Sequence record: OP795442
Length of the DNA stretch: 64,000 nucleotides
Reading direction: 5' to 3' (one strand)
Origin: Escherichia phage A7_1
The notes beneath the pieces are model-generated. The model did not search any database and was not told the origin of the DNA. It worked only from the letters and a program-made list of their open reading frames with translations. Both the position numbers and the translations under genes were made by a program. Below are positions 3,030 through 60,858 of this stretch, in pieces; position 1 is the first letter of the stretch, and each line of letters begins with the position of its first letter.

Positions 3030-3524
3030 ATGATGGATTTCATAAAAGAAGGATTTTCTTTCGACCCCCTTGCAAAGTTTCTACTAAGGAGAAATGGAAG
3101 AGAAGTAGGGAATGTAGTAAAGAATCATAAAGGTTATGATAAAGACTATGTACGTGTAACATGGTCAAGGGAAAGGAAAAGAAAATCTGCGTATGCTCAC
3201 AGGATCATTTGGGAATTGCATTATGGCAAGATACCTGATGGTTATTGTATAGACCACATAAATGGAGATGGTTTGGATAACAGGATTGAAAACTTAAGAT
3301 TGGCAACTAAGAGTCAGAATGGTCAAAACAGGAAAAACAACAAGAATAAAAAGGATGGTCTTCCTAAAGGTGTAGTTATGAATCATGGAAAATACACAGG
3401 AAGGGTCTATGTAAATGGAAAAAGGTTACAGAAAATTAGTTCCGACCTTGACGAAATAGTCAATTGGTTGGAGAATAAACGTAAAGAAAATCACGGTGTG
3501 TTCATGAACAATGGAGAACAATAA
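3030..3524 (+). CDS. HNH homing endonuclease
   Basis: motif HRIIWELHYGKIP..IDHINGDGLDNRIENLR (HNH with AP2-like tail); ATG 3030 with GGAG SD; track start 3006 is GTG inside terminator. Confidence 0.75.
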   Translation: MMDFIKEGFSFDPLAKFLLRRNGREVGNVVKNHKGYDKDYVRVTWSRERKRKSAYAHRIIWELHYGKIPDGYCIDHINGDGLDNRIENLRLATKSQNGQNRKNNKNKKDGLPKGVVMNHGKYTGRVYVNGKRLQKISSDLDEIVNWLENKRKENHGVFMNNGEQ

Positions 3525-5062
3525 TGTCAAAAATTAGTCAAGAAGAAAAAGATATGATCGAAATGCAAGTCTTCGAAGCTGAACGTATTATTGAAGCTGC
3601 AAGTCTTCAACTTATGCGCTTCAAAGCGTTCTACGGGGTTATGCTTTCGTCTATGCCTGTTAAAAAGGCGACGGAGTGGTGTAGTACAATGGCGACTGAT
3701 GGACGTAACCTGTATTACCATCCAGAGTTCGTTGCAGGTATGACAGAAGAACGTAAAAAATTGGTACTTGAGCGACTTTCCAAATCTGAGAAAGATCCTA
3801 AAAAGCTGAAAGAGGGTATTGAGTTTATCAATGTCTTCTATCGTCGAAAGACTGCTCGTGAGCTTGCTCTTATTCTTGAGCACGAATGCGATCATGTGAT
3901 CTCTGATCACGCTTCTCGTGGTAAAGGGTTTAATCATGAGCTTTACAATATTGCAGCGGATCATCGTATCAATACAACGGCTGTGCTTATTCACCAGAAA
4001 GGGGATGAGCTAGGTAAAGCCTGGTTCCCTGCCGGAGAGAGAACGGTATTTGATAAAAATGCTGAATTTGGATTTATGGCCTGGTCTTACTGTGATTTCC
4101 GATTCAAAGATATGTATACTGAGCAGATCTATGAAATCCTGAATAAAGAGCAAGATGATAAAGAAAAATCCAAAGGGAAAGGTTCTGGTTCTGGAAGTGG
4201 AGAGGGTGATGGTGAAGAAGGTGGTCAAGGTCGTAAAGGTGTTGATCAACACATGGATCAGAATGGTGATCCAGAAGATTCAGAAGGTGATGATATCGAA
4301 GATGCACTGGGAATCGACCGTAAAGCGAAGCCTAAGCAAACAGCAGAGGAACGCCAGTATAACGATGGGGTTATGCGTCGAGCCATTGAGAATGCCGTAC
4401 AGGCAGCAGGAAGCGGTGCACCGGAAGATGCTCGTCGTTTTGTAGAAGCGGCGGGTAAACCAAAGATTAATTATCTTCGTTTGTTGCGTAAAACTATTGA
4501 ACGTCTGTTCAAAGATGATGTATCATATCGTCGTTTGTCACGCCGTAGTCACTCGTTAACTCGGACTCTTCGTGGCTCGGGTTACTTATCTGGACGACAG
4601 ACGATTGGTTTACCCTCAAAGAATAAACAGAAGACTATTCGTGCAGGTGTCTTCTTCGACGTATCTGGATCATTTAACGATGATCTGTTAAGACCAACAA
4701 TGCGTGAGATTCGTGGATTGTGTAATCTTTACGATGAGTTTGAAGTTACAATGGCTTGCTGGTCAACAAAGGTTGGTAACATTGAAACGTATACGAAGAA
4801 GAATGTGAATGAGATTGCTAACTACAAGATCAAGACCACATTTGGTACGGATGTTTCTTGTGTGTTCGAGGCATTAGATGAAATGAAAGACCCTATGGAT
4901 CAGATCATCATCTACACTGACGGTTACTTTGCTGATGTATCCCAAAAGAAAGATTGGGCCAAAAAGTATGGTAAGAATGTTCTTTGGATTATCCTGGGTC
5001 GTGGGTCTTCGTTCACCCCGCCTTTTGGCAAGGCAATTGATTTTGACAAGTATCTTAAATAA
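3524..5062 (+). CDS. von Willebrand factor A domain protein (CobT/ViaA-like partner of the ATPase)
   Basis: 512 aa; MIDAS-like FFDVSGSFND; acidic Gly/Ser-rich linker. Confidence 0.7.
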   Translation: MSKISQEEKDMIEMQVFEAERIIEAASLQLMRFKAFYGVMLSSMPVKKATEWCSTMATDGRNLYYHPEFVAGMTEERKKLVLERLSKSEKDPKKLKEGIEFINVFYRRKTARELALILEHECDHVISDHASRGKGFNHELYNIAADHRINTTAVLIHQKGDELGKAWFPAGERTVFDKNAEFGFMAWSYCDFRFKDMYTEQIYEILNKEQDDKEKSKGKGSGSGSGEGDGEEGGQGRKGVDQHMDQNGDPEDSEGDDIEDALGIDRKAKPKQTAEERQYNDGVMRRAIENAVQAAGSGAPEDARRFVEAAGKPKINYLRLLRKTIERLFKDDVSYRRLSRRSHSLTRTLRGSGYLSGRQTIGLPSKNKQKTIRAGVFFDVSGSFNDDLLRPTMREIRGLCNLYDEFEVTMACWSTKVGNIETYTKKNVNEIANYKIKTTFGTDVSCVFEALDEMKDPMDQIIIYTDGYFADVSQKKDWAKKYGKNVLWIILGRGSSFTPPFGKAIDFDKYLK

Positions 5063-40370: not shown

Positions 40371-40859
40371 TTATGGGCAACACCGTGGAGATCTTCCACA
40401 GAAGAATTGCCAATTGGTTTCTGAATCTTTGTGGTTTACAAAACCTATCCTTCCGCACCCTTTCCCACTACAAACCGCTTCACGAGGATGATAGTCTATA
40501 CTGCAAGAGTGGGGATGATCAAATGCCTCCTGTATTTCAACACAGAGTCTACTTAACCAAGCGAACATTTTTGGCATAGAAGCTTCAAGGAGTTTAAGTT
40601 CATCGACCGTAGGTTTGTCTTTCTCCATGAAGAAGTCATTTATCTCGGAAAACAAAATCACGTTTTGAACTATACCGCTGCTTACCTTGTAAGAGAACTC
40701 CTCAGTAAGTCTCACAGTAACTTCCTCTATCAATTCTTTTTCATTATCTTGATCTTTTGCTAATCTTTCTTCAATCCATCGGATAACGAAGAATCTTTCT
40801 CTCTGAACATCCATGTTCAAAGTATTGATTATTTTTTCATAGATTAGGTTTCCTTCCAT
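40371..40859 (-). CDS. hypothetical protein with C-terminal Cys cluster (PTVDELKLLEASMP motif)
   Basis: 162 aa ORF. Confidence 0.5.
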   Translation of the reverse strand: MEGNLIYEKIINTLNMDVQRERFFVIRWIEERLAKDQDNEKELIEEVTVRLTEEFSYKVSSGIVQNVILFSEINDFFMEKDKPTVDELKLLEASMPKMFAWLSRLCVEIQEAFDHPHSCSIDYHPREAVCSGKGCGRIGFVNHKDSETNWQFFCGRSPRCCP

Positions 40860-41971
40860 ACCTTGTCTTGTGCCTCCAGGATAAGTTTTTCAACAATCTT
40901 CAGATCTGTTTTCTTTGGTAAGCTCGATTGCTTATAAAGAACATCTGTGATCATTTTATCTTTTTCTTCAGCCCACTCAACAATTTCTTCATAGCGGTAT
41001 TCACCATTTCGGATTGCGAGGAGTTCTTCAGCGTCTGGTCGATTCACTAAAACTTTACCTTCTGTGAGGATTTCTTCACCCATCCGAAGAAGCCGGACCA
41101 AATGCATAGCATGTTTAGTGTCGTAACCGAACTTCTCTTCCAGTTCATGACGCTTCTCGTTACGATTCTTAACCCACTCCCAGTAGTTGTGGTGTTTCTC
41201 CTTGGCCCATTTATGATCGTCAGCACAATACTTAACAATCATCAGAGTCTTGCCTCTTTTAACTTCCTCTGGGATTTCTTCATAGTCTAGCTTACGGATA
41301 GAACCATCTTTATTAAACATTGGTTGAACATCTTCACTACGATCTTCTACAACACCGTAAATGTTACCACCGTAAGGAACCAAAGTACAGAAGCCTTCCA
41401 TGTTTTTAAATTTACGAACAAAGTCTTCGTACTTCAACTCACCTTCTCCGAGATAGCTCTGCACCAGACGGAAATAGTCAAATTGAGTTGGTGGCTCTTT
41501 TGGTTGCGGATTATTAATGTGTTTGTTGTGACCCTTGATCCGCTTTAACTGAGACATTGCATAACCACTGAAGCGAAATGCAACTTCACGAGACAGTAAG
41601 GAGTAGAAATGTTCTTTCATCTCTTTCCAAGCTTCGTGCTCGTACAATGTGGCTTTCGGATCAGTAAAACCCAGTTCAATGATATTTGGGTTCATCTTCG
41701 AAAACAGTTGAAGGAAAGTTCCCAATTCGTAGATCTTGGCATCCTCTTCACCAGGGATGTTTAATTCAGTAACCTCTTTGAATGGGGTACGAACCACATT
41801 TGGGGTTGCAACAAAAACCCCACGGATATCAATATCACTACCTTCGTTATTCGTACCATACGCATGAGATCCTGCCAGACTCAACATCAGTACCTTCGCT
41901 ACGTCTGGATGCTTTTCCATCTTCTCTACGATACTTTTTACCTTTCCAGCACTCACAACTGAATTTTCCAT
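40844..41971 (-). CDS. Pol-beta superfamily nucleotidyltransferase
   Basis: 375 aa; G-S-x9-D-I-D-I motif (LAGSHAYGTNNEGSDIDIRGVFV). Confidence 0.6.
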   Translation of the reverse strand: MENSVVSAGKVKSIVEKMEKHPDVAKVLMLSLAGSHAYGTNNEGSDIDIRGVFVATPNVVRTPFKEVTELNIPGEEDAKIYELGTFLQLFSKMNPNIIELGFTDPKATLYEHEAWKEMKEHFYSLLSREVAFRFSGYAMSQLKRIKGHNKHINNPQPKEPPTQFDYFRLVQSYLGEGELKYEDFVRKFKNMEGFCTLVPYGGNIYGVVEDRSEDVQPMFNKDGSIRKLDYEEIPEEVKRGKTLMIVKYCADDHKWAKEKHHNYWEWVKNRNEKRHELEEKFGYDTKHAMHLVRLLRMGEEILTEGKVLVNRPDAEELLAIRNGEYRYEEIVEWAEEKDKMITDVLYKQSSLPKKTDLKIVEKLILEAQDKVWKET

Positions 41972-43630: not shown

Positions 43631-43956
43631 TTTTTAACTCCGAAGATCTTAGATAGTAATTTATCATTCCCGATAGTTACACCACAAAAACTTTTTACTC
43701 CGTATACTAGATACGACCCGATTGTAACACAGATAATGATCGGATAAACAAGATACCAAAAGAATGTTGCAAGTATCCACCCTGCCATCACCATACGTAA
43801 ATTTACATTTTCGTTATTCAGTGGCTCCAGGATATAAATATCCTCACAATCTTTTGGGAAGGGGATGTTAAAACCCTTCTGTCGTAATTTGATCAGTAAG
43901 AACCAAAGCGGGCAACTGATAAAACAACCGATCAAATAACCTTCAACCATTTTCAC
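43627..43956 (-). CDS. hypothetical membrane protein, tandem paralogue B
   Basis: 109 aa; paralogue of 43310..43630. Confidence 0.55.
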   Translation of the reverse strand: MKMVEGYLIGCFISCPLWFLLIKLRQKGFNIPFPKDCEDIYILEPLNNENVNLRMVMAGWILATFFWYLVYPIIICVTIGSYLVYGVKSFCGVTIGNDKLLSKIFGVKK

Positions 43957-45193
43957 TCTCCTTCAATTTGTCAAGATATTGTGTAACGTATCTTACTTTT
44001 ACATTTCGGATTCTATTCTTGATCTCTTCTGGACGTCCAGCAAATCTTTCAGAGATCTCTTTACTTTCTTTTGAGATTGCAACGCTGTTTTGAACAATCC
44101 CCGCCAGTGCTGAGAATAATACCAAAGGTTGAGTGTAGCTGTCAAACATTTTTTCAGGACCCCGACCACGAGCATCACAGATGCAAGCATCAATAAATTC
44201 AGAGAGGAATGCTTGGTCCTTTTCACCACGTAAGGCTACTAACAAGTCATAAACTTTCTTTGGCTTCATTTCTTTGATACGGTGAAGTCGTGTATGATGC
44301 TCAGTTACAGCTAAAGCCAACTTCTTCCAATTATTGGGGACACCAAAGCGATCACAAACTTGTTCAGTTAACTTGATACCATGTTCTTCGTGACCGTGCA
44401 GTTTACCCGTTACCCAATAAATACATTTACCTAAGTCGTGACACAGAACTGCCCACTTCACAGCTTCACTTGCACGAGTCGCCTGGGCATAATCCATGCA
44501 AAGTAAAGTGTGAACAAATGCATCACCTTCAGGATGGTGCTCCTTGGGTTGAACAACATCGTATAAATCCACAAGCTCAGGAAATTCCCCCAGTTGAGTC
44601 AACATACGGATCATTACCGAAGGTTTATTCATTTCTGACTGATCACTAAAGCATTTCTTAATCTCTGCAAATTTACGCTCTTTTGGTAATGCACTTAAAT
44701 CAACATCCTTGCACATTCCCCAAGTGTCAGGATCAATTGTAAACTCGCCTCCGTATCTGGCATGTAATCTGGCTAATCGATATACACGTAAAGGGTCTTC
44801 GATAAATGCCTTAATAGATACACAACGTAACCGACGAAGTTCAATATCAAGTGCACCACCGCAAGGGTCAATAATTTCACCCGTAGAAATATCCTTAGCG
44901 ATCGCATTAATGGTCAAATCTCTTCGCATCAGGTCTTGTTCGATTGTAACGTCTGGAGAGAACACAACTTCGAAGTCGTGATAACCAGGACCTGTTGATC
45001 TTTCTGTCCGAGCAAGAGCATACTCTTCCTTTGTCTCGGGGTGAAGGTACACAGGGAAAGCTGCACCAACCTTAGTAAATCCCTTCTCAATCATTTCTTC
45101 ATGGGTCGCTCCAACTACAACGTAGTCACGATCCTTGCTTTCAACACTCATTAGTTCATCGCGAACTGCACCACCTACCAAGTAAACTTTCAT
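43943..45193 (-). CDS. cca: CCA-adding tRNA nucleotidyltransferase with HD domain
   Basis: MKVYLVGGAVRD..DRD..YALARTER..RRDLTINA..DPLRV..CHDLGK closely follows E. coli Cca; ATG 45193 after AAGGA. Confidence 0.85.
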   Translation of the reverse strand: MKVYLVGGAVRDELMSVESKDRDYVVVGATHEEMIEKGFTKVGAAFPVYLHPETKEEYALARTERSTGPGYHDFEVVFSPDVTIEQDLMRRDLTINAIAKDISTGEIIDPCGGALDIELRRLRCVSIKAFIEDPLRVYRLARLHARYGGEFTIDPDTWGMCKDVDLSALPKERKFAEIKKCFSDQSEMNKPSVMIRMLTQLGEFPELVDLYDVVQPKEHHPEGDAFVHTLLCMDYAQATRASEAVKWAVLCHDLGKCIYWVTGKLHGHEEHGIKLTEQVCDRFGVPNNWKKLALAVTEHHTRLHRIKEMKPKKVYDLLVALRGEKDQAFLSEFIDACICDARGRGPEKMFDSYTQPLVLFSALAGIVQNSVAISKESKEISERFAGRPEEIKNRIRNVKVRYVTQYLDKLKESENG

Positions 45194-45231
45194 TCCTTCT
45201 TCTTCCATTCTTTCCAATTCTGCATGCCCGC

Positions 45232-45396
45232 TCATAGCCATCCCCTTTCTTTATACCCTTTTGTAAATCCTGATTCCCAATCTTGAAATTGCTCCGGCAT
45301 GGTGTTTGGATTATACGGGTTGTTTCTCTTGAACATCCCAAACTTGAATCCAGCGGCTCGGCCCTTCTCGTATGCTGAACTGCTTTTTCTTGTCAT
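45232..45396 (-). CDS. hypothetical small basic protein
   Basis: ATG 45396 after GAGGAG. Confidence 0.4.
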   Translation of the reverse strand: MTRKSSSAYEKGRAAGFKFGMFKRNNPYNPNTMPEQFQDWESGFTKGYKERGWL

Positions 45397-53262: not shown

Positions 53263-54360
53263 TTAAAGTTCGAAATCGAAGTCAGATGCACTCACTGAAG
53301 AGTCAACCTGACCCGACAGATATTGACCATTTTCTAGTTCCTGTGGGGTTACCTGAACGTTTTTGGTATTCAGGTGGCTATTGATCCAAGGAATAGGGTT
53401 CTTCAGCGGTTTATCAATGAAACTATCTAAACCAACTGCTCGCATACGTTGATCAGCCATATAATCTACGTATTGCCACAGAATCTCTTTATTCAGTCCA
53501 ACCATCGAACCATCTTTGAACAGGTATTCTGCCCAATCACGTTCTTGCTGTCGTGCCTGCAAGAACAATTCACGAGCCTCATCTTTGCAATCTTCTGCAA
53601 CTCGTGCAATAAGGTCACCTTCACGACCACTTTGCATTTCATTAAGAATATACTGAGTACCAGACAAATGCAAGGCTTCATCACGGGCGATCAGTTCAAT
53701 AATGTTGGTGTTACCAGTCATGATACTACGCTCACCAAATGCAAACGAACATGCAAAGCTCACATAGAAACGAATTGCTTCCAGAGCATTAATACTGTGC
53801 ATACACAGGTACAGTGCTCGTGCATGTGCATAACGATCAACTGGCAGGTTCAAAGCGTAACGACTATTCAACTGGAATAAATCGTCATACAACTTCGTAA
53901 CCGCATCAGCACGTTCCAGAATTTCTGGAGTTTTCATGATCTCATCAAGAATTGCAGAAGGATCACTAAATACATTTCGAATAATGTGTGTATATGAACG
54001 ACTGTGGATTGTTTCACTGAAACCCCAAGTCTCAATCCAAGTTTCCAAAGCTGGATCGGAAACGATTGGAAGTAATACTGCATTCGGACCACGCCCTTGA
54101 ACGGAATCAAGCAACGTTTGATACTTAAGATTACTAATGAAAATATGTTTTTCATGGTCAGGCAATCCCATAAAGTCAATTCGATCACGGGTTACATCGA
54201 TCTCTTCCGGTCGCCAGAAGAATGCCAACTGCTTTTCTGTCAGCTTTTCAAATTTGTTATGTTTTTGCTTGTCGTAACGAGAAACGTTAACAGACTCACC
54301 AAAGAACATCGGTTGTTCCATGAAATCAAACTGGTTTTTATTAAAAGTCGTGTAGCTCAC
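53263..54360 (-). CDS. nrdB: ribonucleotide reductase class Ia beta subunit
   Basis: 365 aa; ferritin-like di-iron core; adjacent to nrdA. Confidence 0.85.
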
Positions 54361-54415: not shown

Positions 54416-54757
54416 TCAATAGTTATTTCTTAAAATTTCAATCCCATACCGCTTAAAGACTTCCTTTGCTGCCATAAACTTTTGTGCTGCACTTGGATTT
54501 GAAGTGTGAACAAACAGAACAGCAGGATACAGGATCGGTTTGCCAAACACAAGTTTTTCTTCTAACATTTCTAAGCAGCGGTAACCTTCTTTTGAATCTT
54601 CACCAAGGTCATTGTCGAAGTGCCATTCTGTTACCCGACGATACATTTTATTGGGGTCATCAAGGAACTCGATAAACTGGTCAGAATTTTTAAACCAGAT
54701 GGCATCATCATGCCCGTAATCTTTTGGATCTCTCAAATCATCAAGCCAAATCTTCAT
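54416..54757 (-). CDS. hypothetical protein
   Basis: 113 aa ORF. Confidence 0.55.
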   Translation of the reverse strand: MKIWLDDLRDPKDYGHDDAIWFKNSDQFIEFLDDPNKMYRRVTEWHFDNDLGEDSKEGYRCLEMLEEKLVFGKPILYPAVLFVHTSNPSAAQKFMAAKEVFKRYGIEILRNNY

Positions 54758-55072: not shown

Positions 55073-57331
55073 TCACAGTTTACAAGCGCCAGATTCGCAG
55101 CCTTCATCCTCTTCATCTTCACCATCGCGAGTTTCTTGATAGTAAACAGTCTTCAGGCCAATCTTGTAAGCATACATCAGGTCACGCAGCACAATCTTAA
55201 TCGGCAGTTTGCCACCTGGATAATCCCAAGGTTTGTAGAAGGTATTGGTCGAGATCGATTGGTCAATAAACTTCTGGATGATAGCCATCAGGTTAAGATA
55301 AGCTGTCGGTCCATTCATATCCCATTTGTACTCGTACACCACACCTTCCTCACCAACACCAGGAACCAGCGTCGGAAGCATACCCGCAGGTGACTTCTTA
55401 AACGTCACTGGACCACGAGGAGGTTCAATGCCGTTGGTAGAGTTAGTAATCTGGCTTGATGTTTCACAAGGCATCATTGTGGACAACGTTGAGTTACGTA
55501 ATCCGTGCAATGCGATATCCAGACGCAAACTTTCCCAATCTTGTTGCAATTCTGCGGTATGCAACTGATCAACTTCTTTCTTGTAGCGATCGATAGGTAA
55601 GATGCCACGAGAATAAGATGTTTGATCGTACCACTCACAAGAACCACGCTCTTTCGCTAACTGAACAGAAGCTTTCAGCAGGTAGAACTGGAATGCTTCC
55701 GCAAGTTTATGAACTTCATTGGCAGCTTCCGGTGAACTATATTTAAGTCCACGTTTAGCTAAGTAATACGCCAAGTTAGTCCAGCCAATACCCAAGGTAC
55801 GACGCAGTAACGTTTTCTCTGCTGCAAGAACAGGGTAGTTCTGATAATCAAGCAGGTTATCAAGAGCACGTACCGTGATCATAACAGGTTCTTCTAAATC
55901 TTCAAGCTTCTCAATCTTCCCGAGGTTGATTGCTGATAAAGTACACAGTGCAACTTCACCAGAATCTTTCGGGTCCTTAATGTTATTGATCGGAGCCGTA
56001 GGTAATGCAATTTCCATACACAGGTTAGATTGCTTAATCGGAGCCACTTCAGGAAGGAACGGACTGTTGCTGTTGCAATGGTCAACGTTCTGAATATAAA
56101 TACGACCTGTCTGGCTACGTTCTTGAGCTAAACGAGTGAAAGCATCAGTCGCTTCAAGCTCTTTGCGAGGAATGGAAGGGTCTGCTTCCAATTTCTCATA
56201 CAGTTCTGCAAATGCTTCTTGATCCGAGAAGAAGTATTTATACAGATCACCGTTTGCTACGTTTGGATGGAAGAAACTGATCTTGCCACCTTTCTGTAAG
56301 CGAGTATAGAAGAACTTGTTGATCTGAACACCATAATCAACATGTCGTGCACGGGTGCTTTCAGTACCACGGTTGTTCTTCATTACGATCAGGTTTTCAA
56401 AGTCCCAGTGCCAAATCGGGTAGAAGTAGTTAGCTGAAGCTTTACGCAGACCACCTTGAGATGCCCAACCTAAAGATTCTTGATACATTCGAACAATGCC
56501 AACCGTACCTGCATGTTTAACTTCCCCGCCGCGAATAGGAGCGTCCTGTCCACGAATAGCACCAAAGTTCAAACCGATACCTGCTCGCTGTGCTGCATAC
56601 TTACCTTGTGCTTCAACTGCTGCAAAGATCTGGTTAATATCATCACCGGACTCAATCAGTACACAAGAACTGAATTGTCGAGTCGGAGTTCGTACACCAC
56701 CCATAATCGGAGTAGGCAGAGAAACCTTCATGGTAGAAACCATATTGTACAGATCAATCACTTTTTGTAGACGCTTCTTAGGATCTTCTTTACTCATCAA
56801 GCACATTGCGATCAGCATCAGTGCTGTCTGAGGAGATTCAAAGATTTCACCTGTTACACGATCCTTGACTAGATATTTATCTTCGTACTGACGCATAGCT
56901 GCGTAAGTGTAATCAAAATCACGGTCATGATCGATAACTGTATCTAAAAATTCAATCTCTTCTTTCGTGTAATCTGAAATAAGATGTTCATCGTATTTAC
57001 CGCGAGCTACAGTCATAAGAATGTGAGCGTACAGTGGACGAGGTTCAAAACCACCATAAGCCTGCTTACGCAGTTTAAACAGAAGCAGACGTGCTGCTGG
57101 ATACTGATAGTTTGGACTTTCTACACTAATTAGGTCCGCTGCGGACTTGATCAGGGTATCGTGAATCGCGTCGGTTTCTACACCATCATACATCTGAATC
57201 TGAGATTTCATCAGGATATCAGAAGGACTTACATCATTAACCCCTTCACAAGACCAAACTACAACACGGTTGATCTTCTCAGCTTCGAATTTCTCTACAG
57301 AACCATTACGCTTACGAACAGTAATACCCAA
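55073..57331 (-). CDS. nrdA: ribonucleotide reductase class Ia alpha subunit
   Basis: 752 aa; N-terminal ATP-cone; C-terminal Cys pair; SD AAGGAGAA. Confidence 0.9.
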   Translation of the reverse strand: MGITVRKRNGSVEKFEAEKINRVVVWSCEGVNDVSPSDILMKSQIQMYDGVETDAIHDTLIKSAADLISVESPNYQYPAARLLLFKLRKQAYGGFEPRPLYAHILMTVARGKYDEHLISDYTKEEIEFLDTVIDHDRDFDYTYAAMRQYEDKYLVKDRVTGEIFESPQTALMLIAMCLMSKEDPKKRLQKVIDLYNMVSTMKVSLPTPIMGGVRTPTRQFSSCVLIESGDDINQIFAAVEAQGKYAAQRAGIGLNFGAIRGQDAPIRGGEVKHAGTVGIVRMYQESLGWASQGGLRKASANYFYPIWHWDFENLIVMKNNRGTESTRARHVDYGVQINKFFYTRLQKGGKISFFHPNVANGDLYKYFFSDQEAFAELYEKLEADPSIPRKELEATDAFTRLAQERSQTGRIYIQNVDHCNSNSPFLPEVAPIKQSNLCMEIALPTAPINNIKDPKDSGEVALCTLSAINLGKIEKLEDLEEPVMITVRALDNLLDYQNYPVLAAEKTLLRRTLGIGWTNLAYYLAKRGLKYSSPEAANEVHKLAEAFQFYLLKASVQLAKERGSCEWYDQTSYSRGILPIDRYKKEVDQLHTAELQQDWESLRLDIALHGLRNSTLSTMMPCETSSQITNSTNGIEPPRGPVTFKKSPAGMLPTLVPGVGEEGVVYEYKWDMNGPTAYLNLMAIIQKFIDQSISTNTFYKPWDYPGGKLPIKIVLRDLMYAYKIGLKTVYYQETRDGEDEEDEGCESGACKL

Positions 57332-57342
57332 TTTATTTCTCC

Positions 57343-57591
57343 TTATTTAGTTTCAGTTTTAGTTGCAGACTTGTTGATCAGGGTATCATATTTATCGACA
57401 TTTTCAAGTGTCGGTTCACCTAATCGAACAGTCAATCCAGAATACTGATCGTGGTAAGTATCGTCATAACCAAACGAATCATCAACCAGATCATTAAACT
57501 GCAACCAACCTAAGTATTCATGCTTACTTGCAAAACCACGCTGGAACCATTTAGTTTGCTCAACCGGAACTGTCAATTTAGCTTTACCCAT
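57343..57591 (-). CDS. hypothetical protein
   Basis: 82 aa, SD AAGGAGAA. Confidence 0.5.
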   Translation of the reverse strand: MGKAKLTVPVEQTKWFQRGFASKHEYLGWLQFNDLVDDSFGYDDTYHDQYSGLTVRLGEPTLENVDKYDTLINKSATKTETK

Positions 57592-57605
57592 AATATTTCT
57601 CCTTA

Positions 57606-58079
57606 TTATTTAATCAGTGTCTCAGAAAACTCAGGAAGATCCATAACGATTGTTTCGGAACGATCTTCTTTTCGTGTGTATTTACGGGTATTCACTTTTT
57701 CAACAACCGGAATATCAAAATCCAAAGAATTAACAAAAGCCGTCGCTTTAGAACTACTAACATCTAGGATATCCATCTTTTCGTAGATATCTACAAGTGG
57801 GAATTCTGATTTGTCACGTAGACGTCCAGAAAACACTGTTGTTTCACGACAAAGGTACGGCTTATCGATACAACGTACATTCACTCGATTAATTCGATCA
57901 ATCTGACAAGGCTTATACTCTCCAGTTTCTTCATTAAGAATAGATACTTGAAATCCGATTAGGTGAAGAACTTTACGAAGCGTTTTATCATCCTTTGGAT
58001 CAAACTTCATGATTTTTGCACATTCCAGAATGAAATCCAGAGTTACTGCACCGTATTTGACTTCTTTCTTAAAACCCAT
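57606..58079 (-). CDS. hypothetical protein
   Basis: 157 aa ORF. Confidence 0.55.
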   Translation of the reverse strand: MGFKKEVKYGAVTLDFILECAKIMKFDPKDDKTLRKVLHLIGFQVSILNEETGEYKPCQIDRINRVNVRCIDKPYLCRETTVFSGRLRDKSEFPLVDIYEKMDILDVSSSKATAFVNSLDFDIPVVEKVNTRKYTRKEDRSETIVMDLPEFSETLIK

Positions 58080-58166
58080 AATTTTCTCCTCGACAACTCT
58101 TTAAAAGAGGGAGCTAATTGCTCCCATTCCTCGTATAATATAAAATTAACTAACCAATGTCAAACA

Positions 58167-59204
58167 TTATTTTGCAACATTTCCAGGAATTAGTTGTCGA
58201 TGCTGGACAAAACCTTTCAAGTTACCACTCCAGAAATTACCATCACGATCTACATGAGTAATTCCTTCTTCCCAACTGGTAGGGTCCCAAGCCACATTCA
58301 CCATTGGAACATTAGGGATAAAATCTTCCTCTGTTTCAGCGATCTCTTTAGCTTGGTGTTCAAAAGGGGACGCGTGTACCTTTTTACCACCCACAAGTCG
58401 AGAATAAATATCTAAAGCTTTATCTTTTGTACTGTCAAGTCGGCGATAACTTACCTGACCGCAGCAAGAAGAGGAAATTCGTAAAGCCTCTTCTTCACTG
58501 AGCATAACAGGCTTGCCATCTTCATCCTCTACATAATAACCAAAGAATACGAAAAAGTCATCACCAAACAATCCAATATTTTCGTAAGCATGTTCAACAT
58601 AGGGAGTATGCCAAACCCCAGGCTCCAATTTTTCTGGATGAGAAGCATCATACGCTTCTTTCATTTTCTTTGCAAGCACTTCGATTGTTGGATCTGCATC
58701 TGCATCTACACGCAACCAGAAGAAATTTTCAAACTCGGTTGCTGTGACTACCGTCTTCATCATTTGGAAAGGTTCAATCAGGCGGTTGGCAATTTGCTTA
58801 TGATACCCTGCCGTCTCAAATCGTTCAGCCCATTCAGATGCAGACTCTGCCGCTTTAACCCAAGCTTCTCGGCCTGTACAGAAAAGATTGTGAGCCAGAC
58901 CATCTTCACCATCAACCCAATCATACCAAACTTTACCGTCGTGTTCCACACCATGATCTTGCATACCTGGTTTGTTAGCCCCAAATCGAACAGGCATTGC
59001 TGTGTTATTACGAACAAGCTCAATCATCTTCTTGATCGGAACTGCACGAGAAGACATTGCGTTTCGACTAAACAGTCGATGGGTCATCAACTCAGAATGA
59101 ATAAAACGAGGATACGTCAATTCAAAAGTTGTGATTCGAGAATTTGTTACCGTACCAATAGAGTCTGCAATAATTTTAACTTCAATTTGATTCAGCTTGT
59201 CCAC
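58167..59204 (-). CDS. ThyX-like flavin-dependent thymidylate synthase (divergent)
   Basis: THRLFSRNAMSSRA aligns with ThyX RHRxxSxxxxSxRY signature (first Arg replaced by Thr); long C-terminal extension. Confidence 0.5.
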   Translation of the reverse strand: MDKLNQIEVKIIADSIGTVTNSRITTFELTYPRFIHSELMTHRLFSRNAMSSRAVPIKKMIELVRNNTAMPVRFGANKPGMQDHGVEHDGKVWYDWVDGEDGLAHNLFCTGREAWVKAAESASEWAERFETAGYHKQIANRLIEPFQMMKTVVTATEFENFFWLRVDADADPTIEVLAKKMKEAYDASHPEKLEPGVWHTPYVEHAYENIGLFGDDFFVFFGYYVEDEDGKPVMLSEEEALRISSSCCGQVSYRRLDSTKDKALDIYSRLVGGKKVHASPFEHQAKEIAETEEDFIPNVPMVNVAWDPTSWEEGITHVDRDGNFWSGNLKGFVQHRQLIPGNVAK

Positions 59205-59207
59205 TTA

Positions 59208-59435
59208 TTACTCCTTATTCTTTTCTTTAAGTACATTCAAATTATATGGTAGATAGCCTTCTAATTCTAACCAATCACCTTTTTCATTAATATATTCTAA
59301 AGATTCAATCTTGTCACCCTTTTTCTTTAGAACATTTAAAACTTGATCAACATCAAGAGAGTTATCGGAAAGCTGAAGTTTATCATCAACATACATACCT
59401 TCCCAATCATATCCTCGGAATATTACAATTTTCAT
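59208..59435 (-). CDS. hypothetical protein
   Basis: 75 aa ORF. Confidence 0.45.
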   Translation of the reverse strand: MKIVIFRGYDWEGMYVDDKLQLSDNSLDVDQVLNVLKKKGDKIESLEYINEKGDWLELEGYLPYNLNVLKEKNKE

Positions 59436-59617
59436 TTTATTTTCCTGATTTTGTAATCAACACGAACATCATACATAACGTGAAGATACATGTCAAACAT
59501 TTCTTTGCACATATCGCTTTTTACTTTGAAGGAAGCCAAAAGGCTTCCATTTTCTTTAGAAAGGATCTCTACATAATCCCCTTCCCTAACTACCCACCTT
59601 CCTTTACCACATCTCAA
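59432..59617 (-). CDS. hypothetical protein
   Basis: 61 aa ORF. Confidence 0.4.
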   Translation of the reverse strand: MRCGKGRWVVREGDYVEILSKENGSLLASFKVKSDMCKEMFDMYLHVMYDVRVDYKIRKIK

Positions 59618-60219
59618 GATTCTCTCTCCAAAATAAATTCAGCAATCGATGCCCAATCGCTAGTTACCAAGTCGTAACATCCGATCTCTTCTTCATCTTG
59701 ACTGAAGGGTGTATCATACTTGATTTTTACTACCTTGTCACTAAATTGATTCAAAAATTTATTACGATCATCAATGATGTAATCACCCGAAACTCCAGCC
59801 TTGTACTTTGTAGCATAAAAACCACACCCGTCTGTTCCATTTTCAAGGTCCAGGTTAGGGAAGTGTCGCTTCAAGAAACGAACCTTACTGCTAAAATGAC
59901 CTTTCTTGCAATAAGAAACAAACCGAATAGGGAATCCTGCGGCATGTAACTTGTTGATTGCATCTACCGCTCCCGCAATAGGGAACATCTTATCATACAA
60001 GAAAGGATCTTCCCAATAATCATAAGGAGGGATAGCCTTCTTACAGCGATCAGGGAAGTACCGAGAAAGATTGTAATCAAAATACCCATTCTCGCTAATG
60101 TCCTTGTCCATAAGGTCAGAATCAGCCTCCATATTATAGATGCTTTCCATCCAGTGCAACCAAGGCCATCCAGAATCAACGATAGTTAAGTCAACATCCA
60201 CAATGATCGCTTTTTTCAT
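59614..60219 (-). CDS. HAD-superfamily phosphatase, 5' nucleotidase-like
   Basis: N-terminal DVDLT (DxDxT) motif. Confidence 0.55.
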   Translation of the reverse strand: MKKAIIVDVDLTIVDSGWPWLHWMESIYNMEADSDLMDKDISENGYFDYNLSRYFPDRCKKAIPPYDYWEDPFLYDKMFPIAGAVDAINKLHAAGFPIRFVSYCKKGHFSSKVRFLKRHFPNLDLENGTDGCGFYATKYKAGVSGDYIIDDRNKFLNQFSDKVVKIKYDTPFSQDEEEIGCYDLVTSDWASIAEFILERES

Positions 60220-60858
60220 TTACTCTTTCCCCTCTGAGAGTTTGATAATTAATTTTGCAGTTTCAGTTAGCTTACCATTAACGTTTTCAACGTCGAAATC
60301 TCTAGGTCGTGCACTTTCAGGGAAATTCTCAGAGTAAATATAATTACGAGAATCACCTTCAAAAGTTAATTTATTACCTGTTCGTGGATCAGTACGATGT
60401 AAACGGATCAGGGTGTAATCACCATTTACCGCTTTAACTACCGGAACACTTTCATGAATAAATCCACCATCAGAGCTAATAAATGTACAAGTATAACCAT
60501 CCATTTCCATACTTTTCGCAATATCTTTAACACGCTTGGCAAGAGCAACACCGAAGTATTCTTCCCCGAAGAGAGGCTTCGCAACATTCTCCGAGATGTG
60601 GATCAGCCAGTTACGTGGGGACACTTGTTTACCTGCAACATTAAAATATGGTTGAGGTACTTCTTTATAATCACGGTGGTAAAGTGCATCCCACAGTTCA
60701 CGATTAATACCTGCAATACGAATAGCTAGATCGATAAGGGAACCTTTAAACTCCACATGAATACCCACGTTGTTGCCTACGGTAACTAACTGAGCGATCT
60801 CACCAGCAAGAGCATCTTTACCAGAAAAAGCAGGACCATTCAAATTGATAAATTTCAT
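60220..60858 (-). CDS. deoxynucleoside monophosphate kinase (T4 gp1-like)
   Basis: P-loop LNGPAFSGKD near N-terminus. Confidence 0.6.
   Translation of the reverse strand: MKFINLNGPAFSGKDALAGEIAQLVTVGNNVGIHVEFKGSLIDLAIRIAGINRELWDALYHRDYKEVPQPYFNVAGKQVSPRNWLIHISENVAKPLFGEEYFGVALAKRVKDIAKSMEMDGYTCTFISSDGGFIHESVPVVKAVNGDYTLIRLHRTDPRTGNKLTFEGDSRNYIYSENFPESARPRDFDVENVNGKLTETAKLIIKLSEGKE

Follow-up and report, generated by a model that had tools for sequence, protein, structure and literature searches.

In the 64,000 nucleotides of DNA from Escherichia phage A7_1 (sequence record OP795442) that were analysed here as one stretch, called the window below, the minus strand carries a gene (58167..59204) whose product resembles the flavin-dependent thymidylate synthase ThyX. 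The open reading frame is a genuine gene, it encodes 345 amino acids, begins with GTG, ends with the stop codon at 58167-58169 and has a strong ribosome binding site (AAGGAG) 6 nucleotides ahead of the start codon. We suggest, with a probability which we put at about 0.7, that the protein is a working enzyme that converts deoxyuridine monophosphate (dUMP) to deoxythymidine monophosphate (dTMP), that it serves the deoxynucleoside triphosphate (dNTP) supply of the phage and that it belongs to a phage-specific, rearranged branch of ThyX. It appears that this family has so far not been described as a permuted ThyX lacking the first arginine of the RHR motif and the lid tyrosine, and searches of open-access papers and preprints found neither a described permutation nor a structural description of the branch.

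The sequence-only reading had called the protein ThyX-like, and at the level of the fold and of the superfamily this is right. The Pfam profile PF02511 (Thy1) matches with 39.2 bits against a gathering threshold of 24.8 (E=8.2e-10), residues 19-190 lying on positions 53-190 of a profile of 191, and in the fold comparison the protein has the three-dimensional fold of ThyX. Canonical ThyX is reached only by fold comparison and by profile–profile comparison. The 'thymidylate synthase' profile PHROG 85 is matched over the full length of the protein (residues 6-344, E=3.2e-107).

In the order of its parts the protein differs from canonical ThyX and from every ThyX enzyme characterised so far. As reference we used the Thermotoga maritima sequence, verified against the PDB (100% identity to 1kq4/1o26), and a canonical profile made of this sequence and 119 relatives. 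An alignment with characterised ThyX enzymes, which the sequence-only reading had named as a check, gave two hhalign matches in swapped order, with the nucleotide contacts mostly kept. Residues 17-195 match T. maritima 55-204 (probability 91.4%, E=9.1e-7), and residues 233-344 match T. maritima 9-142 (probability 94.7%, E=5.6e-8) with a confident core of residues 240-286 against 21-68; a query with the single sequence shows the same pattern more weakly. The canonical linear order, in which a helical module with the HxxPFEH motif precedes the ThyX motif, is not found here, as the module lies at residues 233-284 (58353..58508, minus strand; T. maritima about 9-59). When residues 230-284 (or 236-284) were placed in silico ahead of residue 23, the Thy1 score rose from 37.2-39.2 to 51.5 bits and the coverage of the profile widened from 53-190 to 17-190. 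No gain was obtained with a shuffled insert (36.4 bits) or with segment 285-339 (36.0 bits).

The conservation of the C-terminal part fits this arrangement. All conservation counts in this text come from an alignment of 156 representatives which are 37-74% identical to the query. The conserved motifs are SCCxQVSYR, KVHASPFEH and WSGN..Q.RQ. SCCGQVSY resembles canonical AARVSF and HASPFEH (58356-58376, minus strand) resembles HETPFEH of T. maritima, both being N-terminal elements outside the Pfam match. H277-A-S-P-F-E-H283 is aligned to T. maritima H53-E-T-P-F-E-H59, and S279 takes the position of the serine at the phosphate of flavin adenine dinucleotide (FAD). In the folate complex of the T. 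maritima enzyme we take H53 to be the histidine that stacks on the folate/NADPH ring, and H277 to be its counterpart. Within the module H277 and S252 are found in all 156 sequences, S279 in 153, E282 in 150 and H283 in 155. By the profile comparisons and the re-ordering, the canonical N-terminal module stands behind the core, at residues 233-284; the rearrangement most plausibly came about by tandem duplication plus truncation, a route resembling circular permutation. An internal repeat, that is, a second degenerate ThyX domain, was considered and is unsupported, as the profiles of the N-terminal and the C-terminal parts show no significant match to each other (E=0.38). Likewise, reading QHRQL at residues 334-338 as a relic RHR motif is unsupported, H335 not being conserved (tyrosine in 62 sequences, histidine in 60).

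The other parts of the chain, all on the minus strand, are arranged around the displaced module, and the full chain was modelled as a single compact unit with a predicted template modelling score (pTM) of 0.86. Residues 1-22 (59139..59204) form an N-terminal beta strand (residues 8-17 in the model) and a short hairpin, which lead directly into the strand ahead of the ThyX motif. This region lacks the helical module of canonical enzymes, in line with the start of the Pfam match at profile position 53. The ThyX core follows at residues 23-195 (58620..59138; T. maritima about 55-204 by hhalign and Pfam Thy1). It comprises the ThyX motif, described below, and after it a lengthened loop or insert (residues 57-110, 58875..59036; alignments and model) that stands where canonical enzymes have their flexible active-site loop, contains the family-invariant G80-M81 and is modelled as coil (67-90) followed by a beta hairpin (91-110). 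The core also comprises the NFFWLR block (residues 160-165, 58710..58727), where hhalign places N160 (155/156) on T. maritima N169 and R165 (156/156) on R174, the arginine at the uracil O4. Residues 196-232 (58509..58619) form family-specific beta hairpins, with modelled strands at 204-209, 218-226 and 232-235 and a WHTPYV stretch with the invariant H199 and P201; they fall in the low-confidence portion of the hhalign match and are without a confident canonical counterpart. The chain ends in a family-specific tail (residues 285-345, 58170..58352; WSGN and QHRQL) with conserved N328 and Q334 and invariant R336, which in profile comparison matched neither canonical ThyX nor the N-terminal part of the protein itself significantly. 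What had been described as a C-terminal extension of about 100 residues is a stretch of 150 residues (196-345) beyond the Pfam match, about 50 of which (233-284) are a displaced element of the ThyX core. Truly family-specific are about 37 residues (196-232), about 61 residues (285-345) and the lengthened loop 57-110.

When the alignment is combined with the residue roles given in the literature (PMC6514825, PMC3498832), the nucleotide- and folate-facing site looks intact and the flavin-holding part looks rebuilt. Four of the five literature-defined dUMP contacts (roles from PMC6514825) are conserved: Mycobacterium tuberculosis R87, S105, R107 and R199 correspond to R33, S51, R53 and R165. In addition, T. 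maritima R147 is kept as R141, N169 as N160, the RHR histidine as H42, and the FAD-phosphate serine (S71 of M. tuberculosis) as S279. The arginines R33, R141 and R165 are conserved in 154, 155 and 156 of the 156 relatives. Replaced throughout the family are the lid tyrosine (T. maritima Y91, M. tuberculosis Y108), which is A54 and alanine in 156/156, the FAD-phosphate arginine donated by the neighbouring subunit (M. tuberculosis R190, T. maritima R165), which is T156 (153/156), and T. maritima H178, which is D169 (110/156); moreover, T. maritima E86 is alanine or serine, and Q75 is E38. Twelve residues are invariant in the 156 relatives: H42, S51, R53, A54, G80, M81, R165, H199, P201, S252, H277 and R336. 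New among them, as compared with canonical ThyX, are G80-M81 in the lengthened loop, H199 and P201, and R336. The latter is kept in all variants, and the C-terminal tail in which it lies is a candidate replacement for the lost arginine contacts.

The published ThyX motif is RHRX7S (PMC2826268). The window protein reads T41-H42-R43-X7-S51 (THRLFSRNAMSSR at residues 41-53, 59046..59084, minus strand; HSELMTHRLFSRNAMSSRA at residues 36-54), so that the first arginine alone deviates. T41, H42, R43, S51 and R53 correspond to R78, H79, R80, S88 and R90 of T. maritima, and A54 stands at the place of the lid Tyr91. The sequence-only reading was correct about threonine in place of the first arginine; it is not peculiar to this protein, since threonine is found in 151 of the 156 relatives, beside three lysines and two arginines, and the THR triad is a trait of the family and no mutation of the window gene. 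H42, S51, R53 and A54 are invariant with canonical spacing. R43, whose counterpart in canonical ThyX binds the phosphate of dUMP, is present in only 131 of the 156 sequences; the remaining 25 carry K, G, N, C, Q or S at this position and retain all other invariant residues. As position 43 varies beside retained invariants, neither arginine of the triad seems to be required in this branch, and histidine would be its only indispensable residue. The few members with R or K at position 41 were inspected for a change that might compensate, and none was seen.

A further indication of which parts of the protein matter comes from inteins in its relatives. Seventeen family members of 520-680 amino acids (P0131, P0135, P0140, P0142, P0154, P0168, P0175, P0180, P0197, P0218, P0220, P0233, P0238, P0255, P0257, P0262 and P0269) have large insertions, which are HNH or LAGLIDADG inteins in those with a Pfam hit. 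For these the idea that the long relatives are fusions to other enzymes was rejected. There are five insertion sites, in query numbering 36|37 (H36|S37), about 44/45 (just past THR), 51|52 (S51|S52), about 168|170 (just past L164-R165) and 277|278 (immediately past H277), and every one of them lies inside a catalytic motif. Inteins typically settle where an essential enzyme is most constrained, and their occurrence at H277 is a point in favour of the relocated module belonging to the catalytic core.

The branch is a very large, phage-specific part of the ThyX superfamily. The protein has full-length homologues in 1,034 phage records, between about 30% and 78% identical to it; coverage is at least 80% of the protein in 1,000 phage records, and the alignments extend over 97-99% of the length. 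An exhaustive search returned 4,939 cluster representatives at E <= 1e-3. Carriers are found among rV5/phAPEC8-like phages, ICP1, PAK_P1-like Pseudomonas phages, N4-like podoviruses, phiCbK-like Caulobacter phages and others; the N4-like phages, ICP1 and the rV5-like phages count as model phages. A roseophage member was first annotated through its similarity to N4 gp30, a 'putative thymidylate synthase' (PMC2784036), and by transitivity N4 gp30 belongs to the ThyX-like family as well. Compared with PHROG 85 (N4 gp30 and the rV5-like, ICP1, PAK_P1-like and phiCbK-like proteins), the window protein has the same THR motif and the same C-terminal HxSPFEH and is another member. In hundreds of phage records this family is already labelled 'putative thymidylate synthase', and the window gene is an ordinary representative of it.

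The source phage is an rV5-related (Vequintavirinae) myovirus of Escherichia coli with A73, W70, A5-4 and UPEC06 as nearest records, and from the PHROG 85 copies of its nearest phages the window gene differs in the allele only, the proteins being 75-78% identical. Compared with UPEC06, the gene lies in a mosaic island (57900-59450) with sharp borders, together with a small open reading frame of 75 amino acids (59208-59435): at 55400-57800 and at 59400-60200 the DNA identity amounts to 99-100%, across the thyX-like gene to 65-82% and over the adjoining small frame to 49%. It appears that the gene has been exchanged for a diverged allele, possibly through co-conversion linked to homing endonucleases, given the many inteins of the family. 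In the rV5-like Escherichia phage vB_EcoM-ECP26 the homologue is annotated as two 'thymidylate synthase' proteins (BFVD A0A4Y5TVX3, 245 amino acids, and A0A4Y5TVY4, 97 amino acids); a frameshift or an error of sequencing could explain the split, as could an element that intervenes between core and C-terminal part.

The neighbours named in the sequence-only reading, nrdA, a deoxynucleoside monophosphate (dNMP) kinase and a HAD nucleotidase, are borne out by translations, Pfam NT5C and phrog_139. The NT5C/HAD-type 5'(3')-deoxyribonucleotidase is encoded at 59614..60219 (minus; Pfam NT5C E=2.9e-8) and the dNMP kinase at 60220..60858 (minus; phrog_139 E=1.3e-32). On the other side are nrdA for the alpha subunit of class Ia ribonucleotide reductase (55073..57331, minus) and, on the same strand, nrdB (53263-54360), both identified from the translated frames, the annotation of relatives and a Pfam survey; further along this strand follow NrdD/NrdG (activase) and glutaredoxin, and PhoH is encoded on it as well. 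The Pfam survey of 70 further window open reading frames of at least 81 amino acids revealed no ThyA, deoxycytidine monophosphate or triphosphate (dCMP/dCTP) deaminase, dUTPase, dihydrofolate reductase (DHFR) or glycosyltransferase, and none of these is listed in the complete annotation of UPEC06. The profile PF00303 has no hit to the ThyX-like frame or to any window frame of at least 100 amino acids. With E. coli ThyA as tblastn bait the window and the UPEC06 genome gave no hit below E=5, and with Dut, FolA and Dcd nothing, the sensitivity of such baits being limited, as T. maritima ThyX likewise misses the ThyX-like gene. By these searches no thymidylate synthase other than the ThyX-like protein is recognisable in this phage type. 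Just downstream of the stop codon of its gene, in the intergenic stretch 58080-58166 (minus strand), a near-consensus promoter-like TTGACA-17-TATTAT lies at 58163-58135 and a hairpin resembling a terminator at 58125-58109. Both are no more than matches to a consensus, and the region has no more promoter-like sites than shuffled sequences have.

We favour an ordinary dTMP synthase because the dUMP contacts and the folate histidine are kept, because the protein is the sole recognisable synthase, because it lies in a cluster for dNTP synthesis and because related phages are reported to be very sensitive to restriction. The enzyme would bind flavin and dUMP, the one-carbon unit of methylene-tetrahydrofolate would be passed on via the flavin, and dTMP would be released and would join the phage dNTP supply together with the products of the adjacent ribonucleotide reductases, the dNMP kinase and the nucleotidase. 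To complete the flavin/phosphate site the enzyme would use family-specific residues in place of the RHR arginines.

Several observations weigh against this proposal. The first RHR arginine of canonical ThyX forms hydrogen bonds with both the isoalloxazine and dUMP (PMC6514825), and here this arginine and the tyrosine lid over C5/N5 are both missing, while the second arginine is variable; with these losses, different chemistry could take place at the flavin face. The NCBIfam equivalog model for thyX (TIGR02170) gives 33.1 bits, far under its cutoff of 87.9. Sequence searches of the PDB found no match, neither with the single protein (phmmer, E up to 1) nor with a profile of 48 family sequences (E up to 10). 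The C-terminal part modelled alone is poor, with a predicted local distance difference test (pLDDT) of 67.5, and a structural search with it gave no match. That relatives are sensitive to restriction speaks only indirectly for unmodified thymine. Finally, searches of open-access papers and preprints found no assay or thyA complementation for any member of the branch.

There is also some room for a mechanistically distinct flavin-dependent thymidylate synthase, which we regard as possible though doubtful. In such an enzyme the permuted chain would itself hold elements for which the canonical tetramer relies on different subunits, neither the RHR arginines nor the tyrosine lid would be needed, and G80-M81, H199-P201 and R336 would rebuild the flavin/phosphate site. 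If this were true, the oligomeric state, the binding of flavin (flavin mononucleotide instead of FAD, or looser binding) and the use of the reductant could differ, and the enzyme could escape inhibitors aimed at canonical ThyX.

The sequence-only reading had left the choice between a normal synthase and a variant producing a modified pyrimidine; the former is favoured, and nothing was found that supports a modified product. A synthase of, for example, 5-hydroxymethyl-dUMP, formed when the exocyclic methylene intermediate captures water instead of being reduced, and then built into the phage DNA, would account for the remodelled flavin face (first RHR arginine to threonine, lid tyrosine to alanine, T. 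maritima R165 to threonine) and for the failure at the thyX equivalog threshold, and a dNMP kinase and a nucleotidase adjoin the gene as in some base-replacement pathways. Nevertheless, we consider it unlikely. Neither the Pfam survey of the window nor the annotation of the relative contains hydroxymethyl kinases, glycosyltransferases or aminoacyltransferases, and searches at BLAST level found no second enzyme for ordinary dTMP and no dUTPase or genes for the exclusion of deoxythymidine triphosphate. N4-like phages and ICP1, which carry the same family, are handled as ordinary DNA. The rV5-type phages, likewise carriers, are reported to show an exceptional sensitivity towards restriction–modification systems (PMC8594841), which points, indirectly, to ordinary thymine. 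Moreover, the known phage hydroxymethylases are homologues of ThyA (PMC7824862), and ThyA-like sequence was not found here. The reason to suspect a modified base is thereby removed, as the odd motif and the extra length are traits of a family of probable ordinary dTMP synthases. Equally improbable in our view is a C5-methylase acting on another nucleotide, namely uridine monophosphate (UMP), dCMP or a di- or triphosphate form, on the model of PolB, a homologue of ThyX with UMP as an additional substrate of methylation. The invariant arginine at the uracil O4 (T. maritima R174, here R165) and the conserved phosphate set R33/S51/R53/R141 fit a uracil monophosphate, and the dNTP-supply context, together with the lack of any other recognisable thymidylate synthase in the phage, suggests that what the phage needs is the reaction from dUMP to dTMP.

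Two further explanations question the catalytic role or the common origin of the parts. The protein might be a degenerate, non-methylating member of the fold, with a function in nucleotide binding or regulation, as an oxidase of reduced nicotinamide adenine dinucleotide phosphate (NADPH) or as a scaffold in a complex for dNTP synthesis, given that two of the three RHR positions are no longer strict, that several FAD contacts are gone and that no experimental activity of any member was found in the searchable open-access literature. This is quite improbable, as the 12 invariant residues persist down to 37% identity and cluster in the nucleotide, folate-histidine and uracil-arginine motifs, the inteins target exactly these motifs, and the family is retained in >1,000 phage genomes; invariance, intein targeting and wide retention together form the pattern of an active enzyme. 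Alternatively, the C-terminal 150 residues might be an independent accessory domain of foreign origin fused to the core: Pfam finds nothing in residues 196-345 alone, and the flanks 196-232 and 285-345 have no recognisable counterpart. This explanation is largely refuted and hardly probable at all, as residues 233-284 match the canonical N-terminal module in the hhalign comparison and in the controlled re-ordering test, the whole chain is modelled as compact and the C-terminal part alone only poorly, and the long 'fusion' relatives with a Pfam hit turned out to contain intein insertions and no added domains.

Some other open reading frames of the window were characterised in passing. Between nrdB and nrdA lies a frame for 113 amino acids (54416-54757, minus) with a receiver domain for cyclic-phosphate processing (cREC_REC, E=5e-18), whose counterpart in UPEC06 is annotated 'RNA ligase 1 and tail attachment protein'. 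The frames 40844-41971 (minus) and 43943-45241 (minus) encode a nucleotidyltransferase of the RlaP 'RNA repair pathway' type and an HD-domain enzyme of the PolyA_pol/CCA-adding type. These three frames suggest a phage set for RNA repair or tRNA maintenance near the genes of nucleotide metabolism. Three adjacent frames (29364-30068, 30571-31818 and 31721-32953, all minus) have weak to moderate matches to RCC1-like beta-propeller repeats (E=9e-9 to 2.5e-23, all under the Pfam cutoff), and a fourth such frame was detected among the other scanned frames of the window. On the plus strand, 561-1124 encodes an HD_4 protein of the RelA/SpoT-like hydrolase type and 3524-5062 a DUF2201 metallopeptidase/VWA-like protein; the UPEC06 counterparts of this pair are annotated 'GTP pyrophosphokinase' and stand beside a MoxR ATPase.

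Compared with known systems, the ThyX-like protein shares its setting, a nucleotide-metabolism cluster with a dNMP kinase, with the hydroxymethylases of the ThyA family (T4 gp42 and SPO1 gp29 type). However, it is unrelated to them in fold and shows no similarity in sequence, and this known route to modified pyrimidines is absent here. PolB (PDB 4p5a), the C5-methylase for UMP and dUMP of polyoxin biosynthesis, is a ThyX homologue of altered substrate range; its parts follow one another in the canonical linear order, its gene is part of an antibiotic cluster of Streptomyces, and a specific sequence affinity to it beyond the shared fold was not seen. From canonical ThyX of T. maritima (TM0449), M. 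tuberculosis (Rv2754c), Helicobacter pylori and PBCV-1 (A674R) the phage protein differs in that the helical module with the histidine motif sits after the core, in that the first RHR arginine is threonine, the lid tyrosine alanine and T. maritima R165 and H178 threonine and aspartate, and in that it has about 100 residues of family-specific sequence and a longer active-site loop. For annotation this explains why the family narrowly passes Pfam yet fails the curated equivalog model. ThyX is studied as an antibiotic target and as an unusual enzyme of flavin-mediated methyl transfer, and the rules of its mechanism, the RHR triad, the tyrosine lid and the active site built from three subunits, all derive from canonical enzymes. 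If the phage branch is active, it reveals which parts of the ThyX active site are truly essential.

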